64,000 bases of DNA from a virus, in the IMG/VR virus record IMGVR_UViG_3300043774_000134, positions 2,559 through 66,558 of that record; one strand, 5' to 3'. The first letter of the stretch is position 1. Each line of letters opens with the position of its first letter. Under the pieces are notes generated by a model. The model saw only the letters and a program-made list of their open reading frames with translations. It had not been told where the DNA came from and did no database searches. Positions 6,280 to 63,631 of the stretch are shown here, in pieces. Made by a program: the position numbers and the translations under genes.

Positions 6280-6297
6280 TTGTTTCTCTCTTTCCAC

Positions 6298-6822: not shown

Positions 6823-6828
6823 AATTAC

Positions 6829-7275: not shown

Positions 7276-7326
7276 AGTTATAGTATATCAGATTGTGAGC
7301 TTATTAAAATCAAGTGGCAGATTAGG

Positions 7327-8034: not shown

Positions 8035-8360
8035 TACTCAGTCTCCGCAGGTTTAGGGTACTTTTCTTTTACTGCTAAACATGCTGCAATATAGTCGTCA
8101 ACCTGTTGCTGATCACCTTTTACAATACCGTCCAGATAATCCGCCATTGGGGGGTACTCTGGTGCACGGAGTCGTGTGTATTCAAGTGCATCGTAATCAG
8201 CCTGTATCCGAGCTACCTCTTCAAGAAGAGCTTCTTCCGTAGGCTTTTCAATATCTTCACTAAGCCACTCAAGACCAGAGTAGTCTTCACCAGTAAGTAC
8301 CCACTGTGAACCTGGGGCAAGTGTTTGAATTGCGTCTGGAATTCCAAATATTCTATTCAT
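8034..8360 (-). CDS. Tail fibre assembly chaperone-like protein
   Basis: AIQTLAPGSQWVL..LEW..PTEE..R..EYP..VKEKYPK pattern, adjacent to fibre genes. Confidence 0.6.
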   Translation of the reverse strand: MNRIFGIPDAIQTLAPGSQWVLTGEDYSGLEWLSEDIEKPTEEALLEEVARIQADYDALEYTRLRAPEYPPMADYLDGIVKGDQQQVDDYIAACLAVKEKYPKPAETE

Positions 8361-8409
8361 ATTTTAATTATACACTATCCAATTCTAATTATTCTATTCA
8401 TCATTTTCC

Positions 8410-8991: not shown

Positions 8992-8993
8992 AA

Positions 8994-9473
8994 TTATCCT
9001 ATCAAAAATCCTGAAAAACCGTTGTGGGCGTTGGGACCGCTTGCGTAAAGCGAAGTTCCTGTGGCATTAATAACTTTCATTTGGTCTGAAGCAGCAAGTT
9101 GAAGAGTTACAGAGCCGTGGTTTCCGTTGTAAAGACCAGTACTGGTTCCGTAAGGGTTTATTCCTACGTCAATATTGTTTTTTTGCAGTCTAAGCTCAAA
9201 GGTTCCGCCGTTGTTGTTCATTCCAAAAAAAGAAAAAAAGTAAACTCCAGCAATTGGGGCTGTAAAAATGCCAGTGCCAGCGTTGTAAGCACTGCCTATA
9301 TTTGATATTACGGTATTCCAAATAATTGTAGTTGGTCCACTCGTAATGTTTCCAGCATCTCGCCTAGCTGAAAAAGCTATTGGATTTATTAAAGATACTG
9401 TTCCAGAAGCTGTAATTGAAAAAGCGTCTGCTCCAGCAGTGTTTGCAATGTTGTTTACTCTTAGCTCACTCAC
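8994..9473 (-). CDS. C1q-domain fibre tip protein
   Basis: AFSA..IIWNTV..NIG.AYN..TGIFTAPIAGVYFFSF..FSGFLI. Confidence 0.8.
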   Translation of the reverse strand: MSELRVNNIANTAGADAFSITASGTVSLINPIAFSARRDAGNITSGPTTIIWNTVISNIGSAYNAGTGIFTAPIAGVYFFSFFGMNNNGGTFELRLQKNNIDVGINPYGTSTGLYNGNHGSVTLQLAASDQMKVINATGTSLYASGPNAHNGFSGFLIG

Positions 9474-10051
9474 TGTGCTACCTCCATTAACATAAGTCCA
9501 GAAGTACCAAGCTCATGAGTTGTCGCTTGGTTCGCCCAGCCTACTGTTCTATTTGTAAAAATAGTTCCAGCACCACTGGCTAGATATGTAACTCTATAGG
9601 TTAGTGCTGAAGTAGAGTTTGGGGAATCAGAAAGAAAAAAGTTCATTGCTTCTGGCGTACTGTTTGCGTCATCTGCGGTGTAGCTAAGTGTTCCAATTGA
9701 TATTCCGCTAATAATTGTTGCACCAGGATCGGGCTGTCTTCCAATCTGAGTACCGTTTCTACTAACGCCAAAAACAGAATCCCAAAGAAGTCCTTGTCCT
9801 GTTACTTCCCCAAACCATCTTGCCTGAATAATTATTTTACTAGTATTTCTTTTGGGTGTAATGGTGGCTACCAAACCTGAAATATCTAAGATTGTATTAG
9901 CAGCAACGCCTTGTGAAGTTCTTGTTACGTTGTCTACATTGACAACTTGTATAATTGAACCTGGAGCATAAAGTGTGTGTCCAGAAGGCACAGTAATTGT
10001 ATTGTTGTTAACCGCTAGTCCTTTTAGTTCGCCAACAGTAAGTTCACTCAT
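9470..10051 (-). CDS. Tail fibre/receptor-binding module
   Basis: YAPGSIIQVV..TITPKRNTSKI..LMEVAQ; paralogous to 8410-8991. Confidence 0.65.
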   Translation of the reverse strand: MSELTVGELKGLAVNNNTITVPSGHTLYAPGSIIQVVNVDNVTRTSQGVAANTILDISGLVATITPKRNTSKIIIQARWFGEVTGQGLLWDSVFGVSRNGTQIGRQPDPGATIISGISIGTLSYTADDANSTPEAMNFFLSDSPNSTSALTYRVTYLASGAGTIFTNRTVGWANQATTHELGTSGLMLMEVAQ

Positions 10052-50393: not shown

Positions 50394-50799
50394 AATAATA
50401 TAATTATATCGTATGTTTTATAAGTTATCCACACCCTGTTGATAACATATAACTAATTAAGCTCGCTTTTAGTCGGCGGTAAATTTCGGCGCCGAGAAGT
50501 ACCCCATATACCTGTCCAAACAAGATGAAACATCCAAATGGACAAATAAATATGATATCGAAGTATCGGAAAATAACAATATATCCCCCATATCGGAATA
50601 TCCAGATATTGTGCTATCCTTATATCGACCCCAGTCATGCCACAGGTTCGGAAACCAGCATAAACCCCAAATAGGATTGCTCTCTAGTAATAGGGAGCTT
50701 TCTTATTTGATCAATAGAAGTAACACTAATGAGTGATTGATCAAGACAGCCTTTGGCTGTTATGTACCCTCGAAAATTAAGCTATGTTATAATTGAGAT

Positions 50800-51018
50800 A
50801 TGGAAAATAAAGAAAATGAACCAGAAGATGTTAAATTCCTTGATCTATTTAATCCAAACTCACCAAGATCAAATGAGGATGAAATTAAAGCTAGACTTGA
50901 TATTTGTAACCAATGTCCTTACTTAGGAAAGAAACTAAAGCGTTGTGGTCTATGTGGTTGTTTTATGTCATTGAAGACTACTTTGTTAGAAGCTAAATGT
51001 CCTATTGACAAATGGTAA
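50800..51018 (+). CDS. Small Cys-rich protein
   Basis: RLDICNQC..CGLCGCFM..KT..CP..KW; leaderless TATAAT-N6-ATG. Confidence 0.75.
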   Translation: MENKENEPEDVKFLDLFNPNSPRSNEDEIKARLDICNQCPYLGKKLKRCGLCGCFMSLKTTLLEAKCPIDKW

Positions 51019-51182
51019 GCATCTTTGCTATAATAGATCTATGTGTAATGGAAATTGCTCTTGTGATACCCCCGAAGTTTTAAAATATGATCTATCAGAA
51101 GATTGCTTATGCATCTTTGATGGAAACCCAGACTTTTGTATTTGTATTGACATAAGTGAACCCACAGCGTAAGGAGAGAAAC

Positions 51183-51356
51183 GTGGATAAACCAAAAGAT
51201 AAACTTTATCAGGATAAGACCTGGCTTGCTACTGAGCTTGAAACTAAATCTACCCGAAAAATTGCTAAAGAGCAAAGGGTTAGCTATAAGCTTATTAATG
51301 TATGGGCTTTGAACTATGGACTCATTGAGCGATCAGAAGAAACAATCCTTGCATGA
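51183..51356 (+). CDS. Small HTH protein
   Basis: LYQDKTWL..KSTRKIAKEQRVSYKLINVW..YGL; AAGGAG before GTG 51183. Confidence 0.65.
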   Translation: MDKPKDKLYQDKTWLATELETKSTRKIAKEQRVSYKLINVWALNYGLIERSEETILA

Positions 51357-51712
51357 GGGATAAATTGTCTACCCTGCAAAAAATTCTAATATCTATAGCA
51401 GGACTTGGCACTATTGTGTTGTGCAATCTTGTTGTGATCTTTATTGCAAAAGCATTTGGTGCTTAATCTGAAAAATTTTGTATTTTCCAATTTGAAGATT
51501 TTCTGAATAATTTTTAGAGATGTACGATACATGCCTCACAGAAATAAATCAACAAAAATATAGTGAGCACACTGAAAGTGACTATACGCACCCAAAACTT
51601 TCTCAAACTATTTTTTGACTTATCGGCGTGTCGCATTGCTAATGTCAGTGGTTACTGATTAGATATAGATATAGAAAGAAACCAAGCAAAACCTAAAAGA
51701 ATGGAAAACAAA

Positions 51713-51832
51713 ATGTTCGGAATCACAAAGTCAGAAGGCTACTACTGGGTACGCGTTGGACAGAGCACTACTAAGGTTGGTCACAAGACTTTCCGTTCAG
51801 CACTTGCTCACCTTATCACTGGCATTGCCTAA
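51713..51832 (+). CDS. Small hypothetical protein (39 aa)
   Basis: MFGITKSEGYYWVRVG..; promoter and SD upstream. Confidence 0.65.
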   Translation: MFGITKSEGYYWVRVGQSTTKVGHKTFRSALAHLITGIA

Positions 51833-51885
51833 GTTTCACTGTCATAGGCTAACGATAAACTAAAGACATAAAGAAAGGATAACTA

Positions 51886-52029
51886 ATGTATATAGTAGAA
51901 GTAATCAAGAAGGGAATCGGAGTCATTGAGACTTTCGGTTCACGCTCTAGGGCAGAAGCAGAAGCACAGAAGAATGTGTATGCTCTCATGTATCCTGAGT
52001 GTGTAGTAATGATGGAGTGGAGTAACTAA
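51886..52029 (+). CDS. Small hypothetical protein (47 aa)
   Basis: MYIVEVIKKG..; AGAAAGGA SD. Confidence 0.7.
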   Translation: MYIVEVIKKGIGVIETFGSRSRAEAEAQKNVYALMYPECVVMMEWSN

Positions 52030-52259
52030 GGGTAGGGGATCCCCTCCCTATACCCCCAACATATGGGCCTGTGTATAACTTATCCACAATTTGGCGCCGC
52101 CCTGTGTATAACTTGTCCACAGGTTACGCATACGTCTAAGATCCCTCGAAAAAAATCTTTTATTTATTTTTGCGTTTGTCGGCGTGTCGCGTAGGTAATG
52201 TCGTAGGTGTGTGATTAGATATAGATATAGAAACAAACACAGAAAGAATGGAAAACAAA

Positions 52260-52346
52260 ATGGAAATCGTAATCGTAATCATGTGGTCGCTTGCTCTCGC
52301 ACCATTCGCATACATTGCTGTATCGTACTGGTGGAGTGGTCGCTAG
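52260..52346 (+). CDS. Membrane micropeptide (28 aa)
   Basis: MEIVIVIMWSLALAPFAYIAVSYWWSGR. Confidence 0.6.
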   Translation: MEIVIVIMWSLALAPFAYIAVSYWWSGR

Positions 52347-52406
52347 TTTCACTGTCAGACCCTACTGCTATACTCTAACTAACAAACAAAAAGAATGGAT
52401 AACAAA

Positions 52407-52532
52407 ATGTCAGAAGAAACTCGAATGCTAACAAGCCTTATCATTGGTGGAGGTCTTTGTGCCTTCGTCTTCATCGGTATCATCGCAATGGCTATTGCGG
52501 CTACCTACTACGGAAAGAAAGAGGGTAAGTAA
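52407..52532 (+). CDS. Membrane micropeptide (41 aa)
   Basis: MSEETRMLTSLIIGGGLCAFVFIGIIAMAIAATYYGKKEGK. Confidence 0.65.
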   Translation: MSEETRMLTSLIIGGGLCAFVFIGIIAMAIAATYYGKKEGK

Positions 52533-52533
52533 T

Positions 52534-52680
52534 ATGACTACCACTACTAAGACTTGCTACCTATGCTATACCCCTGGTATGCCTGATGTACCTGCTGTAG
52601 AGTATTCGCCCTATGGCTACCCTGCCTGTGCTAGCCACTATGCTAGTGACTTTGATGAGTTTGCTAGCGATTATTCGTAA
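52534..52680 (+). CDS. Small zinc-binding protein
   Basis: MTTTTKTCYLC..CASH; true start inside tracked ORF 52444. Confidence 0.65.
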   Translation: MTTTTKTCYLCYTPGMPDVPAVEYSPYGYPACASHYASDFDEFASDYS

Positions 52681-52850
52681 TCACGGCGTGTCGCCTTGAC
52701 ATTCCCCCGATTTTGGGCGCCGCCTGTGGATAACTTTGTGGATAACTCTGTTACGGAACCGTTATAAAATCTTCCCGATTGGTGGAAAAAGTAGGGGTCA
52801 AATGTCAGTGGGTCGTGTTAGTCTGTTTACAGATAGAAAGGAAAAAGCAA

Positions 52851-52961
52851 ATGGGATTTATGAAAATCATCACCGCTGAAGGTGTACAAGACATTGAGAC
52901 TATGACGGTTGAGCAATTGCTCGGTCTTCAGGTCGCCCTAATGGCAGAAAAAGATAAATAA
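52851..52961 (+). CDS. Small hypothetical protein (36 aa)
   Basis: MGFMKIITAEG..; GAAAGGAA SD. Confidence 0.65.
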   Translation: MGFMKIITAEGVQDIETMTVEQLLGLQVALMAEKDK

Positions 52962-53035
52962 CTTTTTTTCGCAAACACGGCGTGTCGTCTTGACAAATCG
53001 TAGAATGTGTGATTAGATAGTAATATAAATAAACA

Positions 53036-53128
53036 GAGAGAGAATGAGCCTCAGAGAATGAGCCTTAGCAAATAATCCCGATAGGGTGAGCCTAAGCAAA
53101 TAAGTCTCAGAGCAAATAAGTCTCTCTC
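53036..53128 (+). ncRNA. Candidate structured RNA with three UGAGCC/AGCAAAUAA modules
   Basis: Closing stem GAGAGAGA/TCTCTCTC; inner GAGA/TCTC and CCC-GATA-GGG; TTGACA-N17 promoter upstream. Confidence 0.55.
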
Positions 53129-53146
53129 ACTAAGAAAGGTAAACTA

Positions 53147-53311
53147 ATGGAATATGTAAACAAGACTCCCCTAATGGATGAGGTATTGGAAGCCGTTATG
53201 GCTAAGTATGGCTACGAGACTAAGTCTCAGGCATACCCCTTCGTAATCGGTATGGCTACCGAATGTATCTCAGTCGAATCGTTTAGCCGTATGCTAGACG
53301 CACTAAAGTAA
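53147..53311 (+). CDS. Small hypothetical protein (54 aa)
   Basis: MEYVNKTPLMDEVL..; AGAAAGG SD. Confidence 0.7.
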   Translation: MEYVNKTPLMDEVLEAVMAKYGYETKSQAYPFVIGMATECISVESFSRMLDALK

Positions 53312-53328
53312 AGAAAGGAAAACTCAAA

Positions 53329-53466
53329 ATGAAAATTTGTGAAGTTTGTGAAAAGTCTGTAGAGACTGTGTTCGTGTCCGCTTATGGCGAATGGCTTATC
53401 TGTAAGCCTTGCCTTATCTCTGAGCGTTTCGCAATTATGCGTAGCGAGGGTGAGTTTGCTAGTTAG
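53329..53466 (+). CDS. Small CxxC-CxxC zinc finger protein
   Basis: MKICEVC..ICKPC; SD. Confidence 0.7.
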   Translation: MKICEVCEKSVETVFVSAYGEWLICKPCLISERFAIMRSEGEFAS

Positions 53467-53682
53467 CAGACTACCCCCAGGGATCCCCGACATATACCAA
53501 TTTTAGAATACACGGCGTGTCGGTTTGCGTATTCCCAAAAAATCGGCGCCCCCCTGTGGATAACTTATCAACAGTTTACGTTGGACTACAAAAATGCCTC
53601 AAACTTTTTTCAGACTTATCGGCGTGTCGTGGTTTCATTGTCGGTGGGTCGTGCTAGGCTGAGGGTAACGAAAGGAAAACTA

Positions 53683-53889
53683 ATGGAAACTAGAACACAA
53701 AAGGCTAAGGGCTTCGTCGGTAAGACTGTCCGCTTCACTAGCAAGCCTCGCCCATTCGGTCCAGCCTACACCTATGAGGGTCTGGTCGTAAAGGTAAAGG
53801 GTCTGAACGCTGACGGCTCAGAGATTCACTTTGAGGACGGTCGAAAGACTTTCTACAACTGGGGAGTGTCCGCCGAGATTCTCTCTTAG
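53683..53889 (+). CDS. Small beta-barrel-like hypothetical protein
   Basis: METRTQKAKGFVGKTVRF..; AACGAAAGGAAAACTAATG. Confidence 0.75.
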   Translation: METRTQKAKGFVGKTVRFTSKPRPFGPAYTYEGLVVKVKGLNADGSEIHFEDGRKTFYNWGVSAEILS

Positions 53890-53939
53890 AGTGTCGGTGG
53901 CTACCCCTATACTGTAATCATAACGAAAGGAAAACTAAA

Positions 53940-54110
53940 ATGGAATGTGAAATCTGTGACTACCGTCAGGCACTTGAGGTGCTTCAGTATGACACCGAAA
54001 TTGCTGAGTTGGAGTTTGTGGCTGTGTGCCAGAACTGCCACGACGCTATCGTGTGCGATAAGTTGGAAACTCAATTCGCTATCGTTGATATCTTCCCGAT
54101 TGCAGACTAG
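53940..54110 (+). CDS. Small CxxC-CxxC zinc finger protein
   Basis: MECEIC..VCQNC; promoter + SD. Confidence 0.7.
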   Translation: MECEICDYRQALEVLQYDTEIAELEFVAVCQNCHDAIVCDKLETQFAIVDIFPIAD

Positions 54111-54118
54111 GAGAAAAA

Positions 54119-54250
54119 ATGGAACGCTCACCGCTTTATTATTTTGTCCGTGGCGTGTGTCGGTTTATTGTTCAAATCGGCATAGCCATAGGCGTATTGT
54201 TTTCTGCCTATTGGTTCATTCTTCTGTTTTGGGCAACCTTCTACCCCTAG
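54119..54250 (+). CDS. Membrane micropeptide (43 aa)
   Basis: MERSPLYYFVRGVCRFIVQIGIAIGVLFSAYWFILLFWATFYP; AGGAG SD. Confidence 0.65.
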   Translation: MERSPLYYFVRGVCRFIVQIGIAIGVLFSAYWFILLFWATFYP

Positions 54251-54386
54251 GAAAATGGATCGACCCTATCGGCGTGTCGGCTTGACAAATGTCGGTGGGG
54301 GCGGCGCCGCCCACCGTTACCTATTTGTTATTAAGGAATACGAAAAAAATGCCTCAAATGTCAGAGTGGTGTGGTAGGGTTTAGGT

Positions 54387-54746
54387 ATGAAGAAATGCTC
54401 GAAGTGCGAACAGACCCTCGCTCACTCCTCGTTCTCTCCCTCCTCTGGTGGGAAGTATCTGCGACCTGAGTGTCGTGACTGTGGTCGCAAGTTGGCTAAT
54501 GAGCGTCGTGCTTTGCGTAAAGAGTATGGCTACCCCGAATCAGGACACACCTGCCCTATCTGTCTAAAGTCAGAAGATGAACTCAAGGGGACAGGTGGCA
54601 ACGCTTCCATTTGGGTAGTAGACCACGACCACGGTACAGGTGCATTCCGTGGACACATCTGCCACAACTGCAACCGTGGCTTGGGTGTGTTCCAAGATGA
54701 CCTAGACCGTATCGCTAGGGCAATGGAATATTTGCAAAACGCCTAG
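54387..54746 (+). CDS. Endonuclease VII-family (HNH-like) nuclease, leaderless
   Basis: [26 protein letters not shown]; N-terminal CxxC..CxxC. Confidence 0.88.
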
Positions 54747-54875
54747 CCAGGACTTGACAGTTCGCTAGGGATCGGCGCCCCCCTTCGTTACCAAAACGTT
54801 ATTAAGTAAGTTACGAAAAACCTTGTAAATGTCGGAGGCTCGTGTTAGTCTTGTATTACAACGAAAGGATAACTA

Positions 54876-55097
54876 ATGATTTTTGAGCCTGTCTTCGGTG
54901 AAGACTTTGAGATTGTCGCCTACCTTGACGACCTCGGCAACGAGTGGACTGTTGAGGAAACCCAGGACTACTGGAATGTTTCTGGCAACTCGCTTGAGTC
55001 GCAAGACTATGAGCCTGACGAGTCTTGGTGGGATGCCGACGCTATTGCCTCTGCTGGCTGGGGAACCGACGAGGACTACGGATACTACGGAGAGTAG
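54876..55097 (+). CDS. Hyper-acidic small protein
   Basis: 21 D/E and no K/R/H in 73 aa; DADAIASAGWGTDEDYG. Confidence 0.8.
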   Translation: MIFEPVFGEDFEIVAYLDDLGNEWTVEETQDYWNVSGNSLESQDYEPDESWWDADAIASAGWGTDEDYGYYGE

Positions 55098-55144
55098 GCG
55101 AGGGCGCCGATCTCGCTGTCGGTGGCTCATGTTATAGTCATTAT

Positions 55145-55366
55145 ATGAACGAATACGAAACCCTTGAAATCCTGTCCGAATACGAAGCAAAGGCTAACTA
55201 TGATGCCTTACTAGACGAGTGCTACCCTATCGTGTCTATTGGTTACTCAGAGTTTTATCCCTCAACGGTACTCAAAGAGTGTGACCCAATCGCATATCGC
55301 TGTGGCTTTGCTGACTATGTAGACTCATTAGCAGAAGAGGGAACTATGGTCGAGGGCTACTGCTAG
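55145..55366 (+). CDS. Acidic hypothetical protein, leaderless
   Basis: MNEYETLEIL..LDECYP..LKECDPIAYRCGF. Confidence 0.8.
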   Translation: MNEYETLEILSEYEAKANYDALLDECYPIVSIGYSEFYPSTVLKECDPIAYRCGFADYVDSLAEEGTMVEGYC

Positions 55367-55476
55367 GGGGGGCGGCGCCGCCGCTTCGTTACCATTTTGT
55401 TATACGAAACGCCCTCTAAATGCCCTAGAATGTCGGTGGTCACTGCTACACTGTTTATATAACGAAAGGAAAACTA

Positions 55477-55623
55477 ATGCCAGAATGTGAAGTATGCCAG
55501 CACCGTGATTCGGTCTACATGGTAGATGTTGACTATGGTCGCATTATTCTTGTTTGTGCTACCTGTATCAACATCTTCCCCGATGGAGTAATCGTGGCTG
55601 AGGCAGATACCCGACTCATTTGA
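55477..55623 (+). CDS. Small CxxC-CxxC zinc finger protein
   Basis: MPECEVC..VCATC; consensus SD. Confidence 0.7.
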   Translation: MPECEVCQHRDSVYMVDVDYGRIILVCATCINIFPDGVIVAEADTRLI

Positions 55624-55669
55624 GTGTCAGTGGTCACTGCTAAAATAGAAACATAACGAAAGGAAAACT

Positions 55670-55840
55670 ATGGAATACAAATATGTAACTGTATCAGTCT
55701 CACTGCTTGAGAACTTGGTGCGACTGAATCGTGAAGACCAGGCACGATGCAAAGAAATGGGTCTTCGTGAAATGGAACAATGGCACGAGGGTCGTGCTAT
55801 GGCTTTTGAGTTTATTCTCTCTGAGTTTGCAAACAACTAA
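55670..55840 (+). CDS. Small hypothetical protein (56 aa)
   Basis: MEYKYVTVSVSLLE..; consensus SD. Confidence 0.7.
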   Translation: MEYKYVTVSVSLLENLVRLNREDQARCKEMGLREMEQWHEGRAMAFEFILSEFANN

Positions 55841-55858
55841 CGAAAGGCAAGAACTAAA

Positions 55859-56041
55859 ATGATGACACGCAAAGACTATGTATTTACCGCTGATGTAATC
55901 AACGATATGTATCACTTTTCACACGCTACCGATAAAGAAATTGAGAATATGTCAATCGCTTTTGCTGATTACTTTAGCAATGACAATGAGCGTTTTGACC
56001 GTAAGATTTTCTTCAACGCTTGCTACCGAGAGAAGGACTAA
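55859..56041 (+). CDS. Conserved-type small phage protein
   Basis: MTRKDY..A..F..DN.RFD..F..AC pattern. Confidence 0.75.
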   Translation: MMTRKDYVFTADVINDMYHFSHATDKEIENMSIAFADYFSNDNERFDRKIFFNACYREKD

Positions 56042-56170
56042 ATGAGTATGCTCCCATTGTTCGCATTTATGTTTGGGGTCATTGTGTTTGACACGGTAGT
56101 GATTCTCTACCTGTATGCCAAATACAAGAATGCTAAGTATGAGGCATATCTAAACCGACCACCCTTCTAG
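56042..56170 (+). CDS. Membrane micropeptide (42 aa)
   Basis: MSMLPLFAFMFGVIVFDTVVILYLYAKYK.. Confidence 0.6.
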   Translation: MSMLPLFAFMFGVIVFDTVVILYLYAKYKNAKYEAYLNRPPF

Positions 56171-56262
56171 GAGGGGGCGGCGCCCCGATCCGTTATCGGA
56201 ATGTTATTAAGTATCTTACGAAAAATGCCGTGAATGTCAGTGGTCAATGCTAAGATTGAGTT

Positions 56263-56424
56263 ATGAAGAAGAAACCAGCACCCAAGAAGATTCAGAACAC
56301 CGCATACATTATTGCTATGCGAGGTCTGCGTAGTTCCAATGCGGCTACTACGCACGACAATCGACCTAATCGTCAGAGGACTCGTTCAGCAGTCAAGCAG
56401 GTTGCTATTCGGGAGTATGCCTGA
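56263..56424 (+). CDS. Basic small protein, leaderless
   Basis: MKKKPAPKK..MRGLRSSNAATTHDNRPNRQRTRSAVKQVAIREYA. Confidence 0.7.
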   Translation: MKKKPAPKKIQNTAYIIAMRGLRSSNAATTHDNRPNRQRTRSAVKQVAIREYA

Positions 56425-56438
56425 TAGAATAGGATAAT

Positions 56439-56512
56439 GGCTCTGTAGCTCAGTTGGTTAGAGCACTACCCTGTCACGGTAGGGGTCGCCAGTTCAAGTC
56501 TGGTCAGAGTCG
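56439..56512 (+). tRNA. tRNA-Asp(GTC)
   Basis: Acceptor GGCTCTG/CAGAGTC; anticodon arm CTACC-CTGTCAC-GGTAG; TTCAAGT T-loop; no encoded CCA. Confidence 0.95.
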
Positions 56513-56610
56513 CAAATCGAACAAAGGAGTTACTATGTAACAGAGTAAACCAGCCACACTTACCGAAACCTAGGTGTAAAAAAGTAGGGGTGTGGTGTAG
56601 TAAATGTTAT

Positions 56611-56685
56611 TCCCCTTTAGCTCAACGGCAGAGCAACGAGCTGTTAACTCGTAGGTTCTTGGTTCGAATCCAAGAGGGGGAGCCA
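56611..56685 (+). tRNA. tRNA-Asn(GTT)
   Basis: Acceptor TCCCCTT/AGGGGGA; ACGAG-CTGTTAA-CTCGT; TTCGAAT; encoded CCA. Confidence 0.95.
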
Positions 56686-56756
56686 GGATCCAAGGGCGCC
56701 GACCTCACTGTCAGTGGTAGGTGTTACGATAGTATTACTTAGGAAAGGAAAAAATC

Positions 56757-56936
56757 ATGGCTTATGTATCTGAGTATGGTAACTATGGTGGTGAGGGAGT
56801 AATTGTATTCCCAGACTATCAACTTACCCCCGAACAATGGGATGAGTTAGATGTTCTGCCAGACAACGACAAAATGTCGTATGTTAAGGGTATACTAGAT
56901 GAAAACGAACTAGGATATATGGAGTTTAACGACTAA
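56757..56936 (+). CDS. Acidic small hypothetical protein (59 aa)
   Basis: MAYVSEYGNYG..LTPEQWDEL; SD. Confidence 0.7.
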   Translation: MAYVSEYGNYGGEGVIVFPDYQLTPEQWDELDVLPDNDKMSYVKGILDENELGYMEFND

Positions 56937-57127
56937 TGGGAGAAGCAATGAAGCGTGAATCATACATTCCACCTAAAGGAATGACACAAAAAGAGTTCCT
57001 AACTATAGTTGCAAATGACCTAGTAGATATGGTAGTCTTGAAACAGGTAGACTTTACCTATGTGCCAAGTGTTCGTGACTTTATTATCAAACATTCTAAA
57101 TCCCGCCACAGAAAGGTAGCAAAGTGA
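56936..57127 (+). CDS. Hypothetical protein
   Basis: Translationally coupled ORF. Confidence 0.6.
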   Translation: MGEAMKRESYIPPKGMTQKEFLTIVANDLVDMVVLKQVDFTYVPSVRDFIIKHSKSRHRKVAK

Positions 57128-57267
57128 AAAGCAATCCATTTGAGGGAGACGAGCAGGGTATGGAAATTATGGATGCCCTTGACGAATACTATAAGAATCC
57201 CCAAGACTACACATTCCGTGACCTTGAGGAAATCTTCCAAGACCGTGACCCATTCGAGTTTCTCTAA
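57124..57267 (+). CDS. Acidic small hypothetical protein
   Basis: GTG start overlapping the upstream stop; KSNPFEGDEQG..DRDPFEFL. Confidence 0.6.
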   Translation: MKSNPFEGDEQGMEIMDALDEYYKNPQDYTFRDLEEIFQDRDPFEFL

Positions 57268-57275
57268 GGAGCAAA

Positions 57276-57488
57276 ATGAAAAAGTATGATATCACTGCTA
57301 CTGTCAAGCTGTATGACTTTTGTATGCCTGACGACTTTGACCCTGAGAACAATGACGGTGGAGACATCCTAGTCGCCCTTGATATGTATGTAGATGAAAA
57401 GACATATCAAACAGGATGGCGAACATTCGAAGAGACTATGAAGGTGTCTGGCGATTGGGTTAGTGCTACCTATAAGGTAGTCGAGTAG
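57276..57488 (+). CDS. Hypothetical protein
   Basis: AAGGAG SD; 70 aa. Confidence 0.7.
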   Translation: MKKYDITATVKLYDFCMPDDFDPENNDGGDILVALDMYVDEKTYQTGWRTFEETMKVSGDWVSATYKVVE

Positions 57489-57613
57489 TGGAGTTTTTCC
57501 TACTACTCGTGATATCGGTATTGTTGATAGGAGTTATTTTGTTAATCATCTCTCCCCTGATTTTTACCGTGCTGTTTATCATTGAGAGTGTTTTGCAGAG
57601 ACGAAGACACTAG
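57488..57613 (+). CDS. Membrane micropeptide
   Basis: EFFLLLVISVLLIGVILLIISPLIFTVLFII.. Confidence 0.5.
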   Translation: MEFFLLLVISVLLIGVILLIISPLIFTVLFIIESVLQRRRH

Positions 57614-57680
57614 GAAAGATCGGCGCCGCTTTCACTGTCAGTGGGTACTGATACAGTTGTATTACAACGAAAGGGAAAAA

Positions 57681-57809
57681 ATGCCGAACATGAAACTCAC
57701 ACCAACTAGGGCTGGACTTATTTTTGAGTGTGTAGACTGTGGCTCAAAGTTTGAGGCACTTGGCACAGAGGCAGACGAACACGAATGTATGACCGTCTTC
57801 TCATTCTAA
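57681..57809 (+). CDS. Small zinc-binding protein
   Basis: FECVDC..EHEC; SD. Confidence 0.65.
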   Translation: MPNMKLTPTRAGLIFECVDCGSKFEALGTEADEHECMTVFSF

Positions 57810-57855
57810 TGTCGGTGGCTACTGCTAAACTGAAACCCTACGAAAGGAAAAACTA

Positions 57856-58332
57856 ATGGGCTTGGATATGTATCTTGAGGTTCGTCGCACACTTCGTACC
57901 TACACTTGGGATGACCAGTTTGAGAAAATTGACAACCAGTTTGGGCAGTCTCTTGTTGCTCTTGCTGGTATGGAACACTTGGCTGGTCAAGAAAACTCTA
58001 GCGTCAGCATTGAGGTCAATGCAATCTATTGGCGTAAGGTAAACTCTGTTCACCAGTGGTTTGTTGATAACATCGGTGGTGGTGTAGACGAGTGTCAGCG
58101 TATGTATGTCAAACGCAAAGACCTAGAGGACTTGCGTGACTTGGTGAAGGACACTCTCATTCACCGCAACAAGGCTAGCGTTACTCTGCCAACGCAGGGT
58201 GGATTCTTCTTTGGCTCAACCGAGTATGACGAATACTATTGGGGAGATTTGGAATACACGGCTAAGGAGTTAGACCGTGTGCTTGCCAACGCTAAGGAAA
58301 GCGATGACTTCTTCTATCAGGCTTCCTGGTAG
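57856..58332 (+). CDS. Conserved-type phage protein of unknown function
   Basis: MGLDMYL..YWRKVN.VH.WFV..LPT..GFFFGSTEYDEYY..Y.ASW. Confidence 0.85.
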   Translation: MGLDMYLEVRRTLRTYTWDDQFEKIDNQFGQSLVALAGMEHLAGQENSSVSIEVNAIYWRKVNSVHQWFVDNIGGGVDECQRMYVKRKDLEDLRDLVKDTLIHRNKASVTLPTQGGFFFGSTEYDEYYWGDLEYTAKELDRVLANAKESDDFFYQASW

Positions 58333-58458
58333 CAAGACGAGGGGTGCGACTCGATAACGCATGACCCTTCGGGGTCGGCGCCGATCCGTAACCTAATTGT
58401 TACTTACGATATGTCTATTAAGACTCTCACTGTCGGTGGCTGGTGTTATAGTAAAGGT

Positions 58459-59181
58459 ATGACAAAGTTGATTCGTAGCAAAGACCGTAAAGTAACCAAC
58501 GCTGTAACGCCTAACGGCAAGCAAGCCAGTATCGCTAACACTTTTGGTTTGCCTAGCGGAACGGCATTCTCATGTCCAGGTGCTACTAGCGTATGCGAAA
58601 CTATCTGCTACGCTGGCAAGTTGGAAAAAGTCTTCAAGGGTGTGCGTATCAACCTCGAACACAACTGGGCATTAGTCAAAGACGCAGACTACCTAACCAT
58701 GTATAACCTTATCCACGAAATGATTAGCGACTTTGTTTCTGATTGCGAGCGTCGTGGTGCAGAGAAACTATTCCGCATTCACTGGGACGGTGACTTCTTC
58801 AACGAAGACTACACTATCGCATGGCGTGATGTGATTTGTGACTTTCAGGATGTGCAATTCTGGGCATACACACGAAGCGACTTTGCTGTGCCTATCCTGA
58901 TTGACATTCCTAATCTTGGTTTCTACTTCTCAACCGATAGTGCTAACAAAGAATTGGCTATCAGTCTCAAAGAGACTCACGGTATCAAGTTGGCTTACCT
59001 TGCTCAGACATTCGCTATTGGTAAGGCTGACATTCTTGAGATTACTGGTGAGAGTGCTATCCCATGCCCCGAAAATAACAAGAAACTGCCAATGATTAGC
59101 GAAAAGGGTAGTGCCTGTGTTACCTGTGGGCAATGTATCTTCCAACGCAATGACATTCTGTTTTCTGCTACCAAAAAGTAG
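58459..59181 (+). CDS. GP88-family protein (Cys-cluster, radical-SAM-like), leaderless
   Basis: FGLPSG..CPGATSVC...CYA; FRIHWDGDF; FWAYTR. Confidence 0.8.
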   Translation: MTKLIRSKDRKVTNAVTPNGKQASIANTFGLPSGTAFSCPGATSVCETICYAGKLEKVFKGVRINLEHNWALVKDADYLTMYNLIHEMISDFVSDCERRGAEKLFRIHWDGDFFNEDYTIAWRDVICDFQDVQFWAYTRSDFAVPILIDIPNLGFYFSTDSANKELAISLKETHGIKLAYLAQTFAIGKADILEITGESAIPCPENNKKLPMISEKGSACVTCGQCIFQRNDILFSATKK

Positions 59182-59351
59182 CGGAGGGCGGCGCCCCCCC
59201 GATCCAAATCCCTATGTTACGATTAGGTAACAAAAGGCTGAAAAGTGCCATTTGGACTTGCTATTGTCGGTGGTTACTGTCATACTTGATATATCAGCAA
59301 GACCGCTGGTAAATAAGTTGGCTGGCTCGCCAACAGAAAATGAGGAAGCAA

Positions 59352-59492
59352 ATGAATATCGGAGAAACCTTCACCACGCAGAAGTCGGGTGTGACTGGCA
59401 CGATTGCCGAAGTAATCAAGAACGCAAGCGGTTCAGTTCGTGTTCTGCTCACCCTGCCTAACGGCGACAGCCGTTGGACTACCGTCAAGTAG
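59352..59492 (+). CDS. Small beta-rich protein (46 aa)
   Basis: MNIGETFTTQKSGVTGTI..SVRV..RWTTVK. Confidence 0.75.
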   Translation: MNIGETFTTQKSGVTGTIAEVIKNASGSVRVLLTLPNGDSRWTTVK

Positions 59493-59564
59493 TCTAACCC
59501 ATTGTGCTGGGCATCACCCTAAACTGCCCACTCCAAATCAAAAGCCAAATGAAAGGAAAACATA

Positions 59565-60014
59565 ATGGCTCGTTCACTCTCTGTGAAGATTCCCACCGCA
59601 ACGCTTATTGCTGATGTCGAGGCTACGATTGCTAAGATTGAGGAAGATGTTGCTAACTACCCTGCCCTGACCGAGAAGTATCGTGCGGACTCTAAGGCTT
59701 ACAACGACAAGATTGTCCAACTGACGATTGACGCTATCAAGAAGAAGTCTGACCTTATCGGAACTGACTACGGCTCGCCTATTCGTGTGACCTCTGGCTA
59801 CCGAGGCAACTCCGTTCAGATTGAGGTAGACGGTGACGCTCTTGGATTCCCACAGAAGCCTGACGCACCCTCTAACCCTAATGACCGCACCTACTATGGT
59901 CGTGACTACACGACTAAGTTGGACTTGCTGAAGAAGAACCTCAAGGTTCTCAATATGACCAACCAAGAGGAAGTCAATGCCTCCACCTACAATACGGTAA
60001 TGGAACTCCTCTAA
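59565..60014 (+). CDS. Hypothetical protein (149 aa)
   Basis: Consensus SD; biased codon usage. Confidence 0.8.
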   Translation: MARSLSVKIPTATLIADVEATIAKIEEDVANYPALTEKYRADSKAYNDKIVQLTIDAIKKKSDLIGTDYGSPIRVTSGYRGNSVQIEVDGDALGFPQKPDAPSNPNDRTYYGRDYTTKLDLLKKNLKVLNMTNQEEVNASTYNTVMELL

Positions 60015-60053
60015 TGGAAAATGACCTGAGTATGTCTAAGTAAACTGCTCAAG

Positions 60054-60108
60054 CCCCCTATGTGAAGCGTCTGGATAGATTGCTGGTAAACATAGGGGGT
60101 TTCCTTTT
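60054..60108 (+). terminator. Long hairpin + U tract
   Basis: CCCCCTATGT..ACATAGGGGG-TTTCCTTTT. Confidence 0.7.
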
Positions 60109-60216
60109 GGGCGAGGGCGGCGCCCCGATCAGTCGCCATGTAACAAACAGGTTACGATGTTACGAAAACAACCCCTAGAGGTTGTAAATGTCAGTGGTTG
60201 CTGTCATACTTAGGAT

Positions 60217-60441
60217 ATGGAAAAGAAAATGGGAACATACTTCATCGTTAGCGGTGAGTCGTATTATGTGCGAGCCAATTCTGAGGAAGAGGCTGAGGCT
60301 GTTTGGAATGTCGGCATGGGATACCTTGACGCTTCTAACTACCCAGAATTTGATATTGAAGAAGACCCCTTCGAGCGTATCGAATATGGAGAGGCATACA
60401 CCACGGTTGAGTCTATCGTAGACTTCAGTGTCAGTGGCTAG
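60217..60441 (+). CDS. Acidic small protein
   Basis: YVRANSEEEAEA motif; leaderless. Confidence 0.7.
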   Translation: MEKKMGTYFIVSGESYYVRANSEEEAEAVWNVGMGYLDASNYPEFDIEEDPFERIEYGEAYTTVESIVDFSVSG

Positions 60442-60475
60442 TGTTAGACTTAGAATAACAACGAAAGGGAAAAGA

Positions 60476-60733
60476 ATGATTGACAAGGCTTTTGGACTAC
60501 AAGAGGCAGTGCGTAACGCTGTCTACTCAGATGGTGTGCGACTGTCGGCACTAAACATTCTTCACGGTCACCAGATGATGAACGAGGAAGAAATGCAAAA
60601 GGCACTAATGGAACTTGTCTCAGAATTGGCAAGTGTGTCGTCCTTCTTCACAGTACAGGTTTTGCTGTCGGAGGATGAACAGAACGAATTGGCAGACACG
60701 ATTGATATGCTTCAGGGAATGGGGAACAACTAA
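60476..60733 (+). CDS. Hypothetical protein
   Basis: MIDKAFGLQEAV..; promoter 60429 + SD. Confidence 0.75.
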   Translation: MIDKAFGLQEAVRNAVYSDGVRLSALNILHGHQMMNEEEMQKALMELVSELASVSSFFTVQVLLSEDEQNELADTIDMLQGMGNN

Positions 60734-61206
60734 TGATGGACTTTGAGAACATAAACATTGAGATGAAAGACCTGCCACCTGTACCTAGTGATGGCGACCT
60801 TGGTATCGAGACGGCTCTGGCTAATCGTGTCAACGACCTGACTAAGGAACTTGAGGTAGTCAAGGCTAGCAATGACGACTGGCGTGAGCGTTTCGGCAAA
60901 GAGCAAAACAAGATTTATGAGATTCGTAACAACCTTGGGGAACTTCTCAAGACACAGATTGAGCACGAACTAATCACCAACACTGGTGCTAAAGAGATTG
61001 CTGAACTGGTCGGTATCGAACTGACCAAGACGGTTACCGTCACTGGCTCGGTATCATTCCAAGGAACCATTGAGATTAGTATCTTCGATGACACTGATGA
61101 ACTTAGTCAGTATGACATTGAGGTAGACCTGAACGTTAGCCACGACTACGACTCTCTGAACAACTTCGACTATGATGTAGAGTCTATGGAGTTTGAGGAA
61201 GAGTAG
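60733..61206 (+). CDS. Acidic coiled-coil protein
   Basis: 157 aa, translationally coupled. Confidence 0.8.
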   Translation: MMDFENINIEMKDLPPVPSDGDLGIETALANRVNDLTKELEVVKASNDDWRERFGKEQNKIYEIRNNLGELLKTQIEHELITNTGAKEIAELVGIELTKTVTVTGSVSFQGTIEISIFDDTDELSQYDIEVDLNVSHDYDSLNNFDYDVESMEFEEE

Positions 61207-61434
61207 GCCATTAAAGCTAGGGTGGGACCTTGTTAATTCCTTTCTTAGCTCCCATCCTATAGACCTGGGCATGTCTTTAAAAGGCCCTTTCTCATACCCT
61301 GCGAGGGCGGCGCCCCGATCTGCGAATGTAACGTTTTAATTACGATGATTAAGAAAATGTCCCCAAAGCTTGTAATTGTCGGTGGTCTGTGTCATACTTA
61401 GATAAGTAAACAAACCGCTAACGAAAGGCACGAT

Positions 61435-62457
61435 ATGTCACACGAATTGGAAAAGGGCGAGAACGGCGAGGTTGCTTTCGCATCGTTCCGTGAACCTGCT
61501 TGGCATGGTCTTGGGACTGTGTTCGAGGAAGAAGTAAAGACCGCAGATATGCTGAAGTTGGCACATCTTGACAACTGGAATGTTCGCCTTGAGGAGATTC
61601 CTATCCCTGACGGCTTTGTCTCTGACAAGACTAACTACTTTGTTGCTCGCACTAACCCATTCAACGACAAGCAGAATGACATTCTCGGTATCGTTGGTGA
61701 ACGTTACAACACTCTTCAGAACGAGGACTTGTTCACATTCGGTGACAACCTGCTAGACGGTGGTGGACGCTGGGAGACTGCTGGCTCTATCAAGGGTGGT
61801 CGTGTTGTGTTCGGTGCTCTTGCTCTTGAGCGTGAGACTGTGCTTGACCCTAACGGTGTAGGCGACAAGGTAAACACTTACCTGTTGGTAAACACCTCTC
61901 ACGACGGTAGCGTATCCATTATGGCTAGCATTACCCCTGTGCGTGTCGTGTGTGCCAACACTCTGAACATGGCTATCGGTAGTGGCACAGGTCACTGGCG
62001 TAGTGCTAAGCAGTCGTTCAAGATTCGTCACACTCAGACTGCTGAGGGTCGTGTTCACGAGGCTCGTGTTGCTCTTGGTCTTGCCAACGAATACATGGAC
62101 GAGTTTGACAAGATGGCACAGGCTATGATTGAGACTGAGGTCAGTAACGACACATTCCAAGATATCATTCGTGAGGTCTACCCCATGCCTGAGAAAGACG
62201 CTAAGGGTGCTATGTCCAAGTGGAACACCAAGCTGGAACTCATTGAGGACATCTACAACGGTCAGTTCAACAACACGATTTCTGGAACGGCTTGGGGTGT
62301 GCTCAACGGTATCACCGAGCGTCTTGACTGGTATCGTGCTGGACGCAAGGGTAACAGCGAGTCTGTCCTTGCCTCTGCCTCTGGCTTTGACCCTGCTATG
62401 AACGCTGAGAAGAATCGTATCCTTCGCATTGTTCAGAACATGACAATGGCTTCCTAG
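61435..62457 (+). CDS. DUF932 (phage/plasmid-like) protein
   Basis: PAWHGLG..LQN..F..ETAGSIKGGRVVF..YLLV..SHDGS..TPVRVVCANTL..IRHT..GTAWG. Confidence 0.9.
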   Translation: MSHELEKGENGEVAFASFREPAWHGLGTVFEEEVKTADMLKLAHLDNWNVRLEEIPIPDGFVSDKTNYFVARTNPFNDKQNDILGIVGERYNTLQNEDLFTFGDNLLDGGGRWETAGSIKGGRVVFGALALERETVLDPNGVGDKVNTYLLVNTSHDGSVSIMASITPVRVVCANTLNMAIGSGTGHWRSAKQSFKIRHTQTAEGRVHEARVALGLANEYMDEFDKMAQAMIETEVSNDTFQDIIREVYPMPEKDAKGAMSKWNTKLELIEDIYNGQFNNTISGTAWGVLNGITERLDWYRAGRKGNSESVLASASGFDPAMNAEKNRILRIVQNMTMAS

Positions 62458-62605
62458 TCGGTCAGTCACTGCCTCCCTTCGGGGAGGTGGTGGCGGCGCC
62501 GATCCTTTCTATATATAAATAGAGAAACATATAATTACGATTACGATAGTGTAACAAAACTCCTGGGAAGTTTACATTGTCAGTGGCCTATGTCATACTT
62601 GAGGT

Positions 62606-62707
62606 ATGAATGAATTTGAGAAGGCTATGCAGATTGTACTGTCAGAGGCTCTTGCTAGACTAGAGTCAATACCAGATGAAGAAATCGAAAGGTTGTATAT
62701 ATCCTAA
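62606..62707 (+). CDS. Small hypothetical protein, leaderless
   Basis: MNEFEKAMQIVLSEALARL.. Confidence 0.55.
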   Translation: MNEFEKAMQIVLSEALARLESIPDEEIERLYIS

Positions 62708-62880
62708 TGGGCATTTACTATGTTAAGACTGTTGTAGAGTTTTCTGGTGAGGTTGAGGCTGATACCGCCGAGGAAGCAGAAGCAATGGGCTGGAAGTGGG
62801 AAGACGAACTCATGTATGACGGAGTGTATTCTATCGATGTAGAGGAATTGGAGTCTGATGAAGATGACGATGAGAGTTAA
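62707..62880 (+). CDS. Acidic small protein
   Basis: MGIYYVKTVVEFSGEVEADTAEEAEA.. Confidence 0.7.
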   Translation: MGIYYVKTVVEFSGEVEADTAEEAEAMGWKWEDELMYDGVYSIDVEELESDEDDDES

Positions 62881-62986
62881 GCCTTGTGTTGATTGCAACA
62901 TAATGATTGACGCAGATGTATGGCAAGAAGAATTAGGTATGTGTTTAGATTGTTCAAACAAGTATTGGAGTCACGAAGATGAGTAG
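62870..62986 (+). CDS. Small CxxC-CxxC protein
   Basis: MRVKPCVDC..EELGMCLDC. Confidence 0.65.
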   Translation: MRVKPCVDCNIMIDADVWQEELGMCLDCSNKYWSHEDE

Positions 62987-63140
62987 TTACCGAGTTAAGG
63001 TTGAGCAGACCAGTTACTGTGTTGTAGATGTAGAGGCCGAAGATGAGTTTGACGCTGAGTCTGTAGCAATTGAGATGTGGGGCGACGGCGACCTTGATGG
63101 ATTGTTCCAGCACGATGTTCAGATTATCATTGAAGACTAG
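62979..63140 (+). CDS. Acidic small protein
   Basis: MSSYRVKVEQ..VDVEAEDEFDAESVA. Confidence 0.65.
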   Translation: MSSYRVKVEQTSYCVVDVEAEDEFDAESVAIEMWGDGDLDGLFQHDVQIIIED

Positions 63141-63148
63141 GAGTAATA

Positions 63149-63394
63149 ATGGCTAAACCAAAAGCAAGCGACCAAACCTGGAGACGTATCTATCACTCGC
63201 AGGTTGCGGAGGTATTCGAATCAGATACCGAGAACGACTACTACAAGGTAGTACTAGAAGGACAACGACCTAAGTATTTATATGGTGAGTTAGCATTTCA
63301 AAACTACCAGCGTATTGTGCATGACTATGAGATGAAGACTATTTACTCACAAGACTACTCAGTTTACAAAAAGTATGAGTCCGTGGTAAAATAG
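63149..63394 (+). CDS. Hypothetical protein
   Basis: AGGAG SD; 81 aa. Confidence 0.7.
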   Translation: MAKPKASDQTWRRIYHSQVAEVFESDTENDYYKVVLEGQRPKYLYGELAFQNYQRIVHDYEMKTIYSQDYSVYKKYESVVK

Positions 63395-63397
63395 AAT

Positions 63398-63631
63398 ATG
63401 ACACCTACTATTTATACTAAACCCAACTGTGTACAGTGTGAGGCAACCAAGCGTTACTTTGATAACAAAGGTGTAGCCTACACTACCGTCGATATTACAC
63501 AGGATGCGGACGCACTCGATCGACTTATTGAAGAAGGATTTCAGGCTGCACCTGTAGTCAATGCAGGAATAGACTGGTGGAGTGGATTCCAACCAGACAA
63601 AATAGATAAGTACATCTCTGACTATTCGTAA
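63398..63631 (+). CDS. nrdH: NrdH-like glutaredoxin
   Basis: IYTKPNCVQC..GFQAAPVV..WSGFQPDKI. Confidence 0.93.
   Translation: MTPTIYTKPNCVQCEATKRYFDNKGVAYTTVDITQDADALDRLIEEGFQAAPVVNAGIDWWSGFQPDKIDKYISDYS

Follow-up and report, generated by a model that had tools for sequence, protein, structure and literature searches.

The window analysed here is a 64,000-nt stretch comprising bases 2559 to 66558 of a 66,558-bp IMG/VR record (IMGVR_UViG_3300043774_000134; 40% G+C, classed as linear and about 62% complete), and our subject is an array of small early genes near its 3' end, whose intergenic gaps carry repeated GGCGCC and GATC words. Genes on the - strand, including those for portal, protease, capsid, tail fibre, and lysis proteins, extend across positions 1 to 50.4 kb, and from about 50.7 kb onward the contig carries small + strand genes up to its end. 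The portal has about 45% identity to Streptomyces phage portals, and the DUF932 protein of the array (61435-62457) shares 52-54% identity with a protein of Streptomyces BE-type phages, in which the gene occurs twice per record; most of its remaining matches come from phages of Mycobacterium, Microbacterium, Arthrobacter, and Gordonia. The same DNA is carried by lake-water metagenomes (20 rows from 15 studies, 12 of these rows with at least half of the sampled words). This is an uncultured freshwater phage, probably an actinophage, whose host would be a freshwater actinobacterium. Megablast of the region against the phage collection gave no match, the contig contains no WhiB gene, and no relative of the DUF932 gene turned up in the bacterial genome contigs scanned, which therefore gave no clue to the host.

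The early array occupies a single zone, which contains 38 small genes on the + strand together with two tRNAs and some 20 promoters of the TGTCRGTGG-N8-TAnnnT type:

51440..63517, + strand: palindrome-purged, GATC-poor early (putative "host-takeover") zone of about 12.1 kb, bounded by the coding GATC at 51436 and 63518

The 38 genes (51713-63394) were curated from open reading frames, ribosome-binding sites, and promoters, and no gene finder was run. By these calls, the region 51640-63400 consists of 8,823 nt of coding or tRNA sequence and 2,938 nt of intergenic sequence. In what follows, W is this window's phage, L numbers are related loci, and G numbers are records, six in all (G000 and five related ones).

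The whole window holds 180 GATC, compared to 193 +/- 13.5 in shuffles. A sequence-only reading of this DNA had listed 14 GATC copies between 51700 and 63400, all of them intergenic, in a genome whose structural genes commonly contain the word. Every listed position is exact, the neighbouring copies being at 51436 and 63518; all 14 are intergenic by the curated gene calls, and late coding DNA has 139 GATC versus 145 expected. Synonymous-codon shuffles (300 runs; early coding set of 8,712 nt, late coding set of 44 kb) give the size of the effect. Early coding DNA contains no GATC versus 28.5 +/- 4.3 expected, 2 AGCT versus 40, 3 ACGT versus 34.5, 11 GTAC versus 41, 1 GGCC versus 16, and no GCGC or CCGG versus 12.5 and 7.8, respectively. 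Fourteen of the 16 four-base palindromes are depleted in the early genes, in that for each of them none of the 300 shuffles gives a count as low as the observed one; ATAT and CTAG are not, and CTAG is instead enriched (38 versus 23 +/- 3.8). The seven lowest observed/expected ratios among the 256 four-mers of early coding DNA all belong to palindromes, and six-base palindromes number 31 there versus 118 expected, while early intergenic DNA has 33, of which 15 are GGCGCC and 3 are GGATCC. The observation is thus confirmed and stronger than had been claimed. GATC, AGCT (219 versus 233), CATG, TGCA, CTAG, and TTAA are not depleted in late coding DNA, in which CCGG (1 versus 37), GCGC (6 versus 32), GGCC, ACGT, GTAC, and TCGA are.

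These statistics indicate that the purge concerns type II-like words generally and is specific to the zone. It bears the signature of restriction-site avoidance, limited to one sub-genomic zone. Outside it, the genome keeps GATC, AGCT, TGCA, and others, and a region depleted of sites in a genome that keeps them elsewhere is the arrangement of first-step-transfer-type DNA. The phage shows, in extreme form, region-by-region shaping by restriction, with about 12 kb purged and the other 50 kb not.

What remains at the gene junctions? All 16 copies of GGCGCC lie between 50488 and 62500 (2.77 +/- 1.73 in shuffles, none of 100 reaching 16), which bears out the remark that the word is confined to junctions and to 50488. 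Its six-base core is invariant in 16 of 16 copies while the flanks vary, and it is the core of a word of some 9-19 nt, made of G and C only and located between the preceding stop codon and the next promoter. This GC word is present in 15 of the 24 intergenic gaps of at least 40 nt, the remaining gaps having only a promoter. The reported proximity of GATC to GGCGCC holds for 10 of the 14 copies, at 0-5 nt (3 upstream and 7 downstream), the other four being 41-59 nt away; the same proportion, 10 of 14, falls in the 19% of intergenic bases adjoining GC-only runs (binomial P = 3e-5). A full junction consists of the stop codon, sometimes a UUCG-loop hairpin, the GC-only word, typically GGGCGGCGCCCC, then GATC, GTTAC/GTTAT repeats, TTACGAAAAA, and the TGTCRGTGG-N8-TAnnnT promoter, followed either by a AACGAAAGGAAAAC leader or by a start codon 6-7 nt past the -10 element. 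The element begins no more than 5 nt from the stop codon in five junctions, and three junctions have the start of GGCGCC 14 nt ahead of the promoter TGTC while five have it 54-57 nt ahead, two spacing classes obtained by subtracting coordinates. A search for a fixed composite of GATC with the GC word (side, spacing, GGATC context) found none. The junctions are listed below with no strand assigned:

50488..50493: GGCGCC in the divergent intergenic region, beside DnaA-box-like TTATCCACA
52038..52143: GGGGATCCCC (GATC 52038); GGCGCCGCCC (52093-52102) between DnaA-box-like words; GATC 52140
52715..52724: GC block GGGCGCCGCC touching two TGTGGATAAC words, without nearby GATC
53482..53554: GATC 53482 inside GGGATCCCC; GC block CGGCGCCCCCC (53544-53554)
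54258..54312: GATC 54258; 16-nt GC block GGGGGCGGCGCCGCCC (54297-54312); breakpoint of W/L003 homology at 54312
54770..54783: GATC fused with a GC block, GATCGGCGCCCCCC; breakpoint of W/L003 homology at 54784
55101..55112: compact junction GGGCGCCGATC, 4 nt past the stop codon, with GGCGCC 14 nt before the TGTC of promoter 55117
55366..55384: GC block GGGGGGGCGGCGCCGCCGC beginning within the stop codon, without nearby GATC
56173..56190: GC block GGGGGCGGCGCCCCG and GATC
56687..56701: GGATCC, 4 nt, and GGCGCC, right after tRNA-Asn, with GGCGCC 14 nt before the TGTC of promoter 56709
57618..57629: GATCGGCGCCGC, 4 nt past the stop codon, with GGCGCC 14 nt before the TGTC of promoter 57636
58376..58386: CGGCGCCGATC following a UUCG-loop hairpin
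59186..59204: GC block GGGCGGCGCCCCCCCG and GATC, 4 nt past the stop codon
60115..60130: GC block GGGCGGCGCCCCG and GATC
61305..61320: GC block GGGCGGCGCCCCG and GATC, 5' of the DUF932 gene
62492..62504: GGCGGCGCCGATC following a UUCG-loop hairpin, the last junction of the array

Two further kinds of repeated word occur at these junctions. DnaA-box-like words (TTATCCACA, TGTGGATAA, TTGTCCACA), often paired, directly adjoin the GC word in the first four junctions, and CGGCGTGTCG, usually followed by (C)TTGACA, lies 5' of the GC word or promoter and is also present in related loci:

50417-50440, 52069-52130, 52725-52750, and 53555-53575: DnaA-box-like words, also so arranged in L003, L008, and L010
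51625, 52181, 52685, 52980, 53515, 53620, and 54271: copies of CGGCGTGTCG

A structured stretch beginning GAGGGGTGCGACTCGATAACGCA, probably an RNA motif of gene ends, is found at 58340-58376, after the gene ending at 58332 and before the hairpin and GC word; the same stretch is conserved in L003 (about 6885-6920) and L002 (about 6890-6918).

To follow the zone through its relatives, 33 IMG/VR loci were retrieved via the DUF932 gene, and eight were examined in detail. All eight contain a GATC-poor stretch of about 10-11 kb with about 1 GATC per kb, flanked by DNA with 4-6 per kb, and palindromes are depleted inside that stretch as well, with a set of depleted words that differs by lineage. The junction words also differ. 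GGCGGCGCC is carried by W, L003, L001, and L004, GGGGCGCCCC by L010 and L021, and GCGGGGCGCCCCGC by L028. L002 and L009, whose DUF932 protein is about 92% identical to that of W, have GGCCGG and CCGGCC separated by a 4-6-nt loop ending in GAT. L008 has GGCGGCCCCC, one letter off the word of W, and L005 has GCCGCGCCCC, both words occurring in both orientations; L013 has GGGGCGGCC, likewise asymmetric and used in both orientations, and L026 and L022 have GGCTAGCC or GGGCCCAGGGCC following a CCCCGAAAGGGG hairpin. At the junction orthologous to 61305..61320, the relatives have other GC words, mostly also with a GATC. In L026, whose junction word is GGCTAGCC, CTAG is depleted instead (8 versus 42).

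Since the GC words are lineage-specific, GGCGCC as a restriction site is not the conserved item, and the idea that it is kept as such has to be dropped: relatives carry other words in its place, some of them asymmetric and in both orientations. A type II target retained on purpose would be conserved as a palindrome, which is not the case for GGCGCC, while GATC itself is conserved. Across 13 lineages, 61 of 143 zone copies of GATC lie within the 4% of sequence adjoining GC runs. No other four-mer of 50% G+C or less is as enriched there, the second-ranked having 12.6%, and the association of GATC is individually significant in 10 of the 13. What relatives share with W is therefore the GATC-poor zone and the GATC beside a GC block, but not GGCGCC. 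The presence of asymmetric words in both orientations favours action on double-stranded DNA rather than RNA. The varying side and spacing of GATC imply that word and GATC are not one rigid site and make passive copying unlikely.

A homologous array is also found in a cultured phage, Streptomyces phage Samisti12 (NC_042012.1; loci L034, L037, and L038), where genes 1-20 (903-9634), including a DUF932 homologue, lie within an exact 10,666-bp terminal repeat. Its junctions follow the same grammar as in W: a UUCG hairpin comes first, followed by a GC palindrome built on GGGCCC, the -10 element TAGACT, and the leader CGAAAGGGAG. The first 14 kb contain 19 copies of GGGCCC, 17 of them intergenic, versus 2 copies in the next 50 kb. 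GATC is absent from the 64 kb examined versus about 203 expected, and other palindromes are not purged there. With GGGCCC words nearly confined to the junctions of the 10.7-kb terminal repeat, Samisti12 offers a bench model.

The zone-limited purge, the size of the zone, and the homologous array in a terminal repeat lead us to read the zone as an unprotected host-takeover array. We lean, by a little, toward the explanation that it is a host-takeover module that faces restriction unprotected and whose genes are set apart by composite boundary/promoter cassettes. The array DNA would have to work before the phage neutralises host restriction, and would most likely enter the cell or be expressed first. 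The palindromes would have been removed for this very reason, with selection stripping nearly every four-base palindrome from the array and, with them, nearly all six-base type II sites. The GGCGCC/GATC strings would then be the core of a repeated boundary element and not retained restriction sites as such. This element follows the stop codon and precedes the next cassette's operator-like repeats and promoter. Its action is most likely on double-stranded DNA, where it would be a binding site or an insulating block within a composite regulatory cassette. It would be kept despite its cost if its function outweighs carrying a few sites, which would be tolerable because the chance of escaping restriction still grows with every site lost elsewhere. 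The repeated cassettes may double as recombination points that shuffle the small genes. From this analysis we infer an anti-restriction function of the array and its first entry. The sequence-only reading had named a site for a protein among its alternatives, and this is closer to the explanation that we favour than its cleavage idea.

If so, the zone pattern would be a sequence-only marker for DNA that acts before host defences are disarmed, and as such it would point to where the anti-defence genes of uncultured phages should be sought. Its conserved exception, a lineage-specific GC word plus GATC at cassette boundaries, is a defined and mutable element.

Several observations weigh against this explanation. 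The 14 remaining GATC copies are targets for any GATC-specific enzyme, and L024, L026, and L028, 3 of the 13 lineages, lack the association of GATC with GC runs. No anti-restriction family was recognised among 20 early proteins searched against PHROGs and Pfam, no methyltransferase was found in G000 or in four of the five related records, and the search for a reader of the GC word found none, the immediate-early helix-turn-helix protein not co-varying with the word. The W contig is linear and about 62% complete, and the 20 runs found for it are contig-level. G005, the 124,540-bp record of L025/L026, is the only related record with end repeats, and its exact 8,517-bp direct repeat does not coincide with the GATC-poor zone; it was accordingly rejected as evidence for termini. 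On the 3' side of the zone, the genes of W stay on the same strand, whereas those of Samisti12 converge. Restriction pressure may be low if the phages infect freshwater Actinobacteria of the acI type: in PMC6329791, all seven actinobacterial drafts from Lake Biwa have 0 methylated motifs and 0 methyltransferases, the drafts being 17-77% complete and 5-methylcytosine being poorly detected by the method used.

How does the zone compare with known early regions? PMC12455610 describes restriction-site avoidance as concentrated in the first-injected region and notes that an EcoRI site gained in T5's first-transfer region makes the phage sensitive, such a site being harmful only there; the limitation of the purge to one zone fits this principle. 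According to a preprint (10.64898/2026.04.02.716235), T5 first-step-transfer DNA amounts to about 8% of 121,750 bp and lies within 10.2-kb terminal repeats. Both this DNA and the Murciavirus leading region face restriction unprotected, as the zone here is proposed to do. At about 12 kb of an estimated 107-116 kb, roughly a tenth, the zone is like the T5 block in size and in its small early genes, and also in that site content matters in one block while sites elsewhere are tolerated, the same contrast of sites being seen here. Unlike in T5, the purge spans 14 of 16 four-base palindromes and not the site of one enzyme, and two words survive at the cassette junctions.

The host-takeover module of Bacillus phage SPO1 comprises small early genes with strong promoters of their own and is located in the terminal redundancy. 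The array here is like it in having many small early genes, each with its own promoter; to our knowledge, SPO1 has no palindrome purge or junction word. In mycobacteriophage L5 (stoperators) and in phiC31 (conserved inverted repeats), a short word at many gene boundaries is read by one protein, and the array shares with these phages one short word repeated in the intergenic gaps of an actinophage. It differs from them in that the GC word varies between sister phages, GATC stands alongside, and no repressor or reader was found. Our literature search retrieved no description of such junction words or of a blanket palindrome purge in actinophage early arrays. What this analysis adds is the statistics of GATC by GC runs across lineages, the word-promoter spacing classes, the cassette permutation between W and L003, and the comparison with Samisti12.

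Could the GC words act in the RNA instead, as terminators or 3'-end-protecting hairpins, with their palindromes a by-product of stem symmetry? Hairpins with UUCG or GAAA loops do lie just 5' of the word at some junctions (58350-58376 and 62470-62487; CCCCGAAAGGGG in L022 and L026), the word of L002 and L009 itself makes a stem of 6 bp (GGCCGG/CCGGCC) whose loops vary in sequence and are 4-6 nt long, and the short distance from the stop codon to the element in five junctions, as well as W/L003 homology that spans a gene through its GC block and then stops, would suit such a role. Only 4 of 16 junction RNAs, however, fold better than shuffles (z <= -2), and GGCGCC has no consistent position in the folds. 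A scan for a hairpin plus T run found two weak + strand sites at the blocks, the region as a whole having 15 versus 9.0 +/- 2.7 in shuffles. Intrinsic terminators, defined by a GC-rich hairpin and a T/U run, were rejected on these grounds, as 12 of the 16 folds are no better than shuffles. The asymmetric GGCGGCCCCC and GCCGCGCCCC occur in both orientations relative to transcription, and structure alone would not demand a perfectly invariant six-base core (16 of 16) with variable flanks. An RNA-level function is hence unlikely.

Another question is whether the uniformity of the words needs a function of their own, since recombination or gene conversion could homogenise the junction repeats and let GATC and GGCGCC hitch-hike. 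The array has evidently been rearranged. W and L003 share about 70-88% nucleotide identity across it, but the cassette order is A-B-C-D-E-G in W and A-C-B-E-D-G in L003, with B/C and D/E swapped, and their homology ends in a GC block (54312 and 54784), in promoters, or in ribosome-binding-site leaders. In the zone, Logan contigs from four runs are short, at 0.4-1.3 kb, and have numerous alternative joints at promoter, ribosome-binding-site, and CGGCGTGTCG motifs; as the sides of most joints measure 20-32 nt, this evidence is weak. The arrangement recalls the promoter early stem-loops (PeSLs) of T4-type phages, which are likewise short composite regulatory motifs between small variable early genes. 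According to PMC2839356 and PMC4122927, gene order around PeSLs differs among close relatives, with breakpoints in the motifs, and rearrangement end points between W and L003 fall in motifs in the same way. Unlike PeSLs, the junctions here have TGTCRGTGG-N8-TAnnnT promoters in about 20 copies in place of sigma-70 -35/-10 promoters, and no terminator hairpin is demonstrable in the GC word.

Shuffling of cassettes among relatives, with breakpoints in repeated motifs, and the fact that each sister phage has one uniform word are what homogenisation predicts. GATC, however, shifts side and spacing (0-5 nt in W, either side in relatives) and is yet retained in 10 of 13 lineages, which is unexpected from passive copying, especially under a purge of every coding GATC, and the six-base core stays constant while its flanks vary. 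We regard homogenisation without function as quite unlikely, and keep to a boundary element maintained by selection in an unprotected array.

The junction GATC might also be a methylation-sensing or epigenetic switch, with a Dam-type mark read close to every early promoter. Junctions have roughly one GATC each, loosely spaced, which suits a modification target more than a composite binding site, and G005 encodes an N6_N4 methyltransferase (G005:110034-110645, 59.9 bits) just upstream of its GATC-poor zone, the only such gene in the six records. No match to PF02086, PF01555, or PF00145 exists in G000 and four of the five related records, one of which is rated 100% complete, and a phage-encoded methylase was rejected as a general explanation on these negative searches. 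GATC is missing altogether from the Streptomyces relatives (none in 64 kb versus about 203 expected), and N6-methyladenine motifs are absent in 7 of 7 freshwater actinobacterial drafts in PMC6329791. We hold a switch of this kind to be improbable.

Least probable of all is the central idea of the sequence-only reading, that host restriction cuts or phage nicks are steered to the junction words so that the fragments stay expressible and their ends feed a single-stranded-DNA alarm that drives the promoters. The avoidance signature, junction placement, and conservation in relatives stand, so that the outcomes which this reading had named as refuting it (no significant coding depletion or junction enrichment, no conservation) did not arise, while nothing indicates steered cleavage or DNA ends that switch on promoters. 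The geometry fits, with 14 of 14 GATC between a stop codon and the next promoter, and each fragment would keep its promoter and gene, but this is trivial because the sites are intergenic. There is no physical evidence of breaks, the run data being contig-level; near-identical phages have different GC words, some of which are no type II-like palindromes, and three lineages lack the GATC association. Short linear DNA fragments are exposed to host exonucleases, which would reach the pieces. T5 (consensus R/GCGCRGG), phiKMV-like phages, and phage tf do have localised sequence-specific nicks, whose function PMC3517423 gives as unknown. These nick sites are like the junction words in being short words at discrete places in the DNA, and the T5 consensus contains GCGC (same source), but they are asymmetric and on one strand, whereas the junction words, known from their sequence, are palindromic or occur in both orientations and do not show a one-strand consensus.

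A variant, which we rate as just as far-fetched, makes the junction words programmed weak or protein-capped points in a first-entering, terminally repeated array, at which breaks would activate PafBC-type promoters via single-stranded DNA while a second copy restores the genome. Were the zone in a terminal repeat, as Samisti12 suggests, a second copy could indeed restore a damaged first one, and each promoter-plus-gene unit would stay expressible after host enzymes or a phage nuclease had broken or nicked the DNA at the words. Among the papers retrieved on RecA-NDp and phages, judged by titles and abstract openings, none concerns phage promoters.

Family matches among the 20 early proteins are limited to DUF932, GP88, endonuclease VII, a weak "DNA binding protein" (g3), and families of unknown function. 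The first early gene, g1 (50800-51018), encodes a 72-amino-acid CxxC...CxxC zinc-ribbon-like protein (phrog_13558); present in 18 of the 33 related loci, it is the most conserved immediate-early gene. Two candidate readers of the GC word were rejected: the g1 protein, because its presence in 18 loci does not match the word types, and the g3 protein (51183-51356), because its helix-turn-helix is identical in W and L002, whose GC words are different. Isoelectric points below 4.6 are found for 17 of 38 early proteins (51713-63394), the following being examples:

54876-55097: acidic early protein, 73 amino acids, net charge -21
62707-62880: acidic early protein, 57 amino acids, net charge -19
60733-61206: acidic early protein, 157 amino acids, net charge -26

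No family match in PHROGs or Pfam backs a DNA-mimic role for these acidic proteins, which are candidate DNA mimics in that their low isoelectric points are compatible with anti-defence proteins of that type.

Upstream of the zone, the immediate-early part (50785-51172), in which GATC still occurs, has consensus sigma-70-type promoters, TTGACA-18-TATAAT at 51005-51034 and TGTTATAAT at about 50785. Its start codons at 50800 and 51041 lie 5-6 nt past the -10 element, which suggests leaderless messages. Five genes of the early array (55145, 56263, 58459, 60217, and 62606) are probably leaderless too, since they start 6-7 nt past the -10 hexamer of a TGTCRGTGG-type promoter, and the remaining early genes have a near-identical AACGAAAGGAAAACTAATG leader. 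The bin with the tRNA-Asp and tRNA-Asn genes (56302-56755) has a contig depth 7-40 times that of its neighbours in each of the four runs, next to a wide variety of flanks; evidently, abundant lake organisms have tRNAs of at least 85% likeness.

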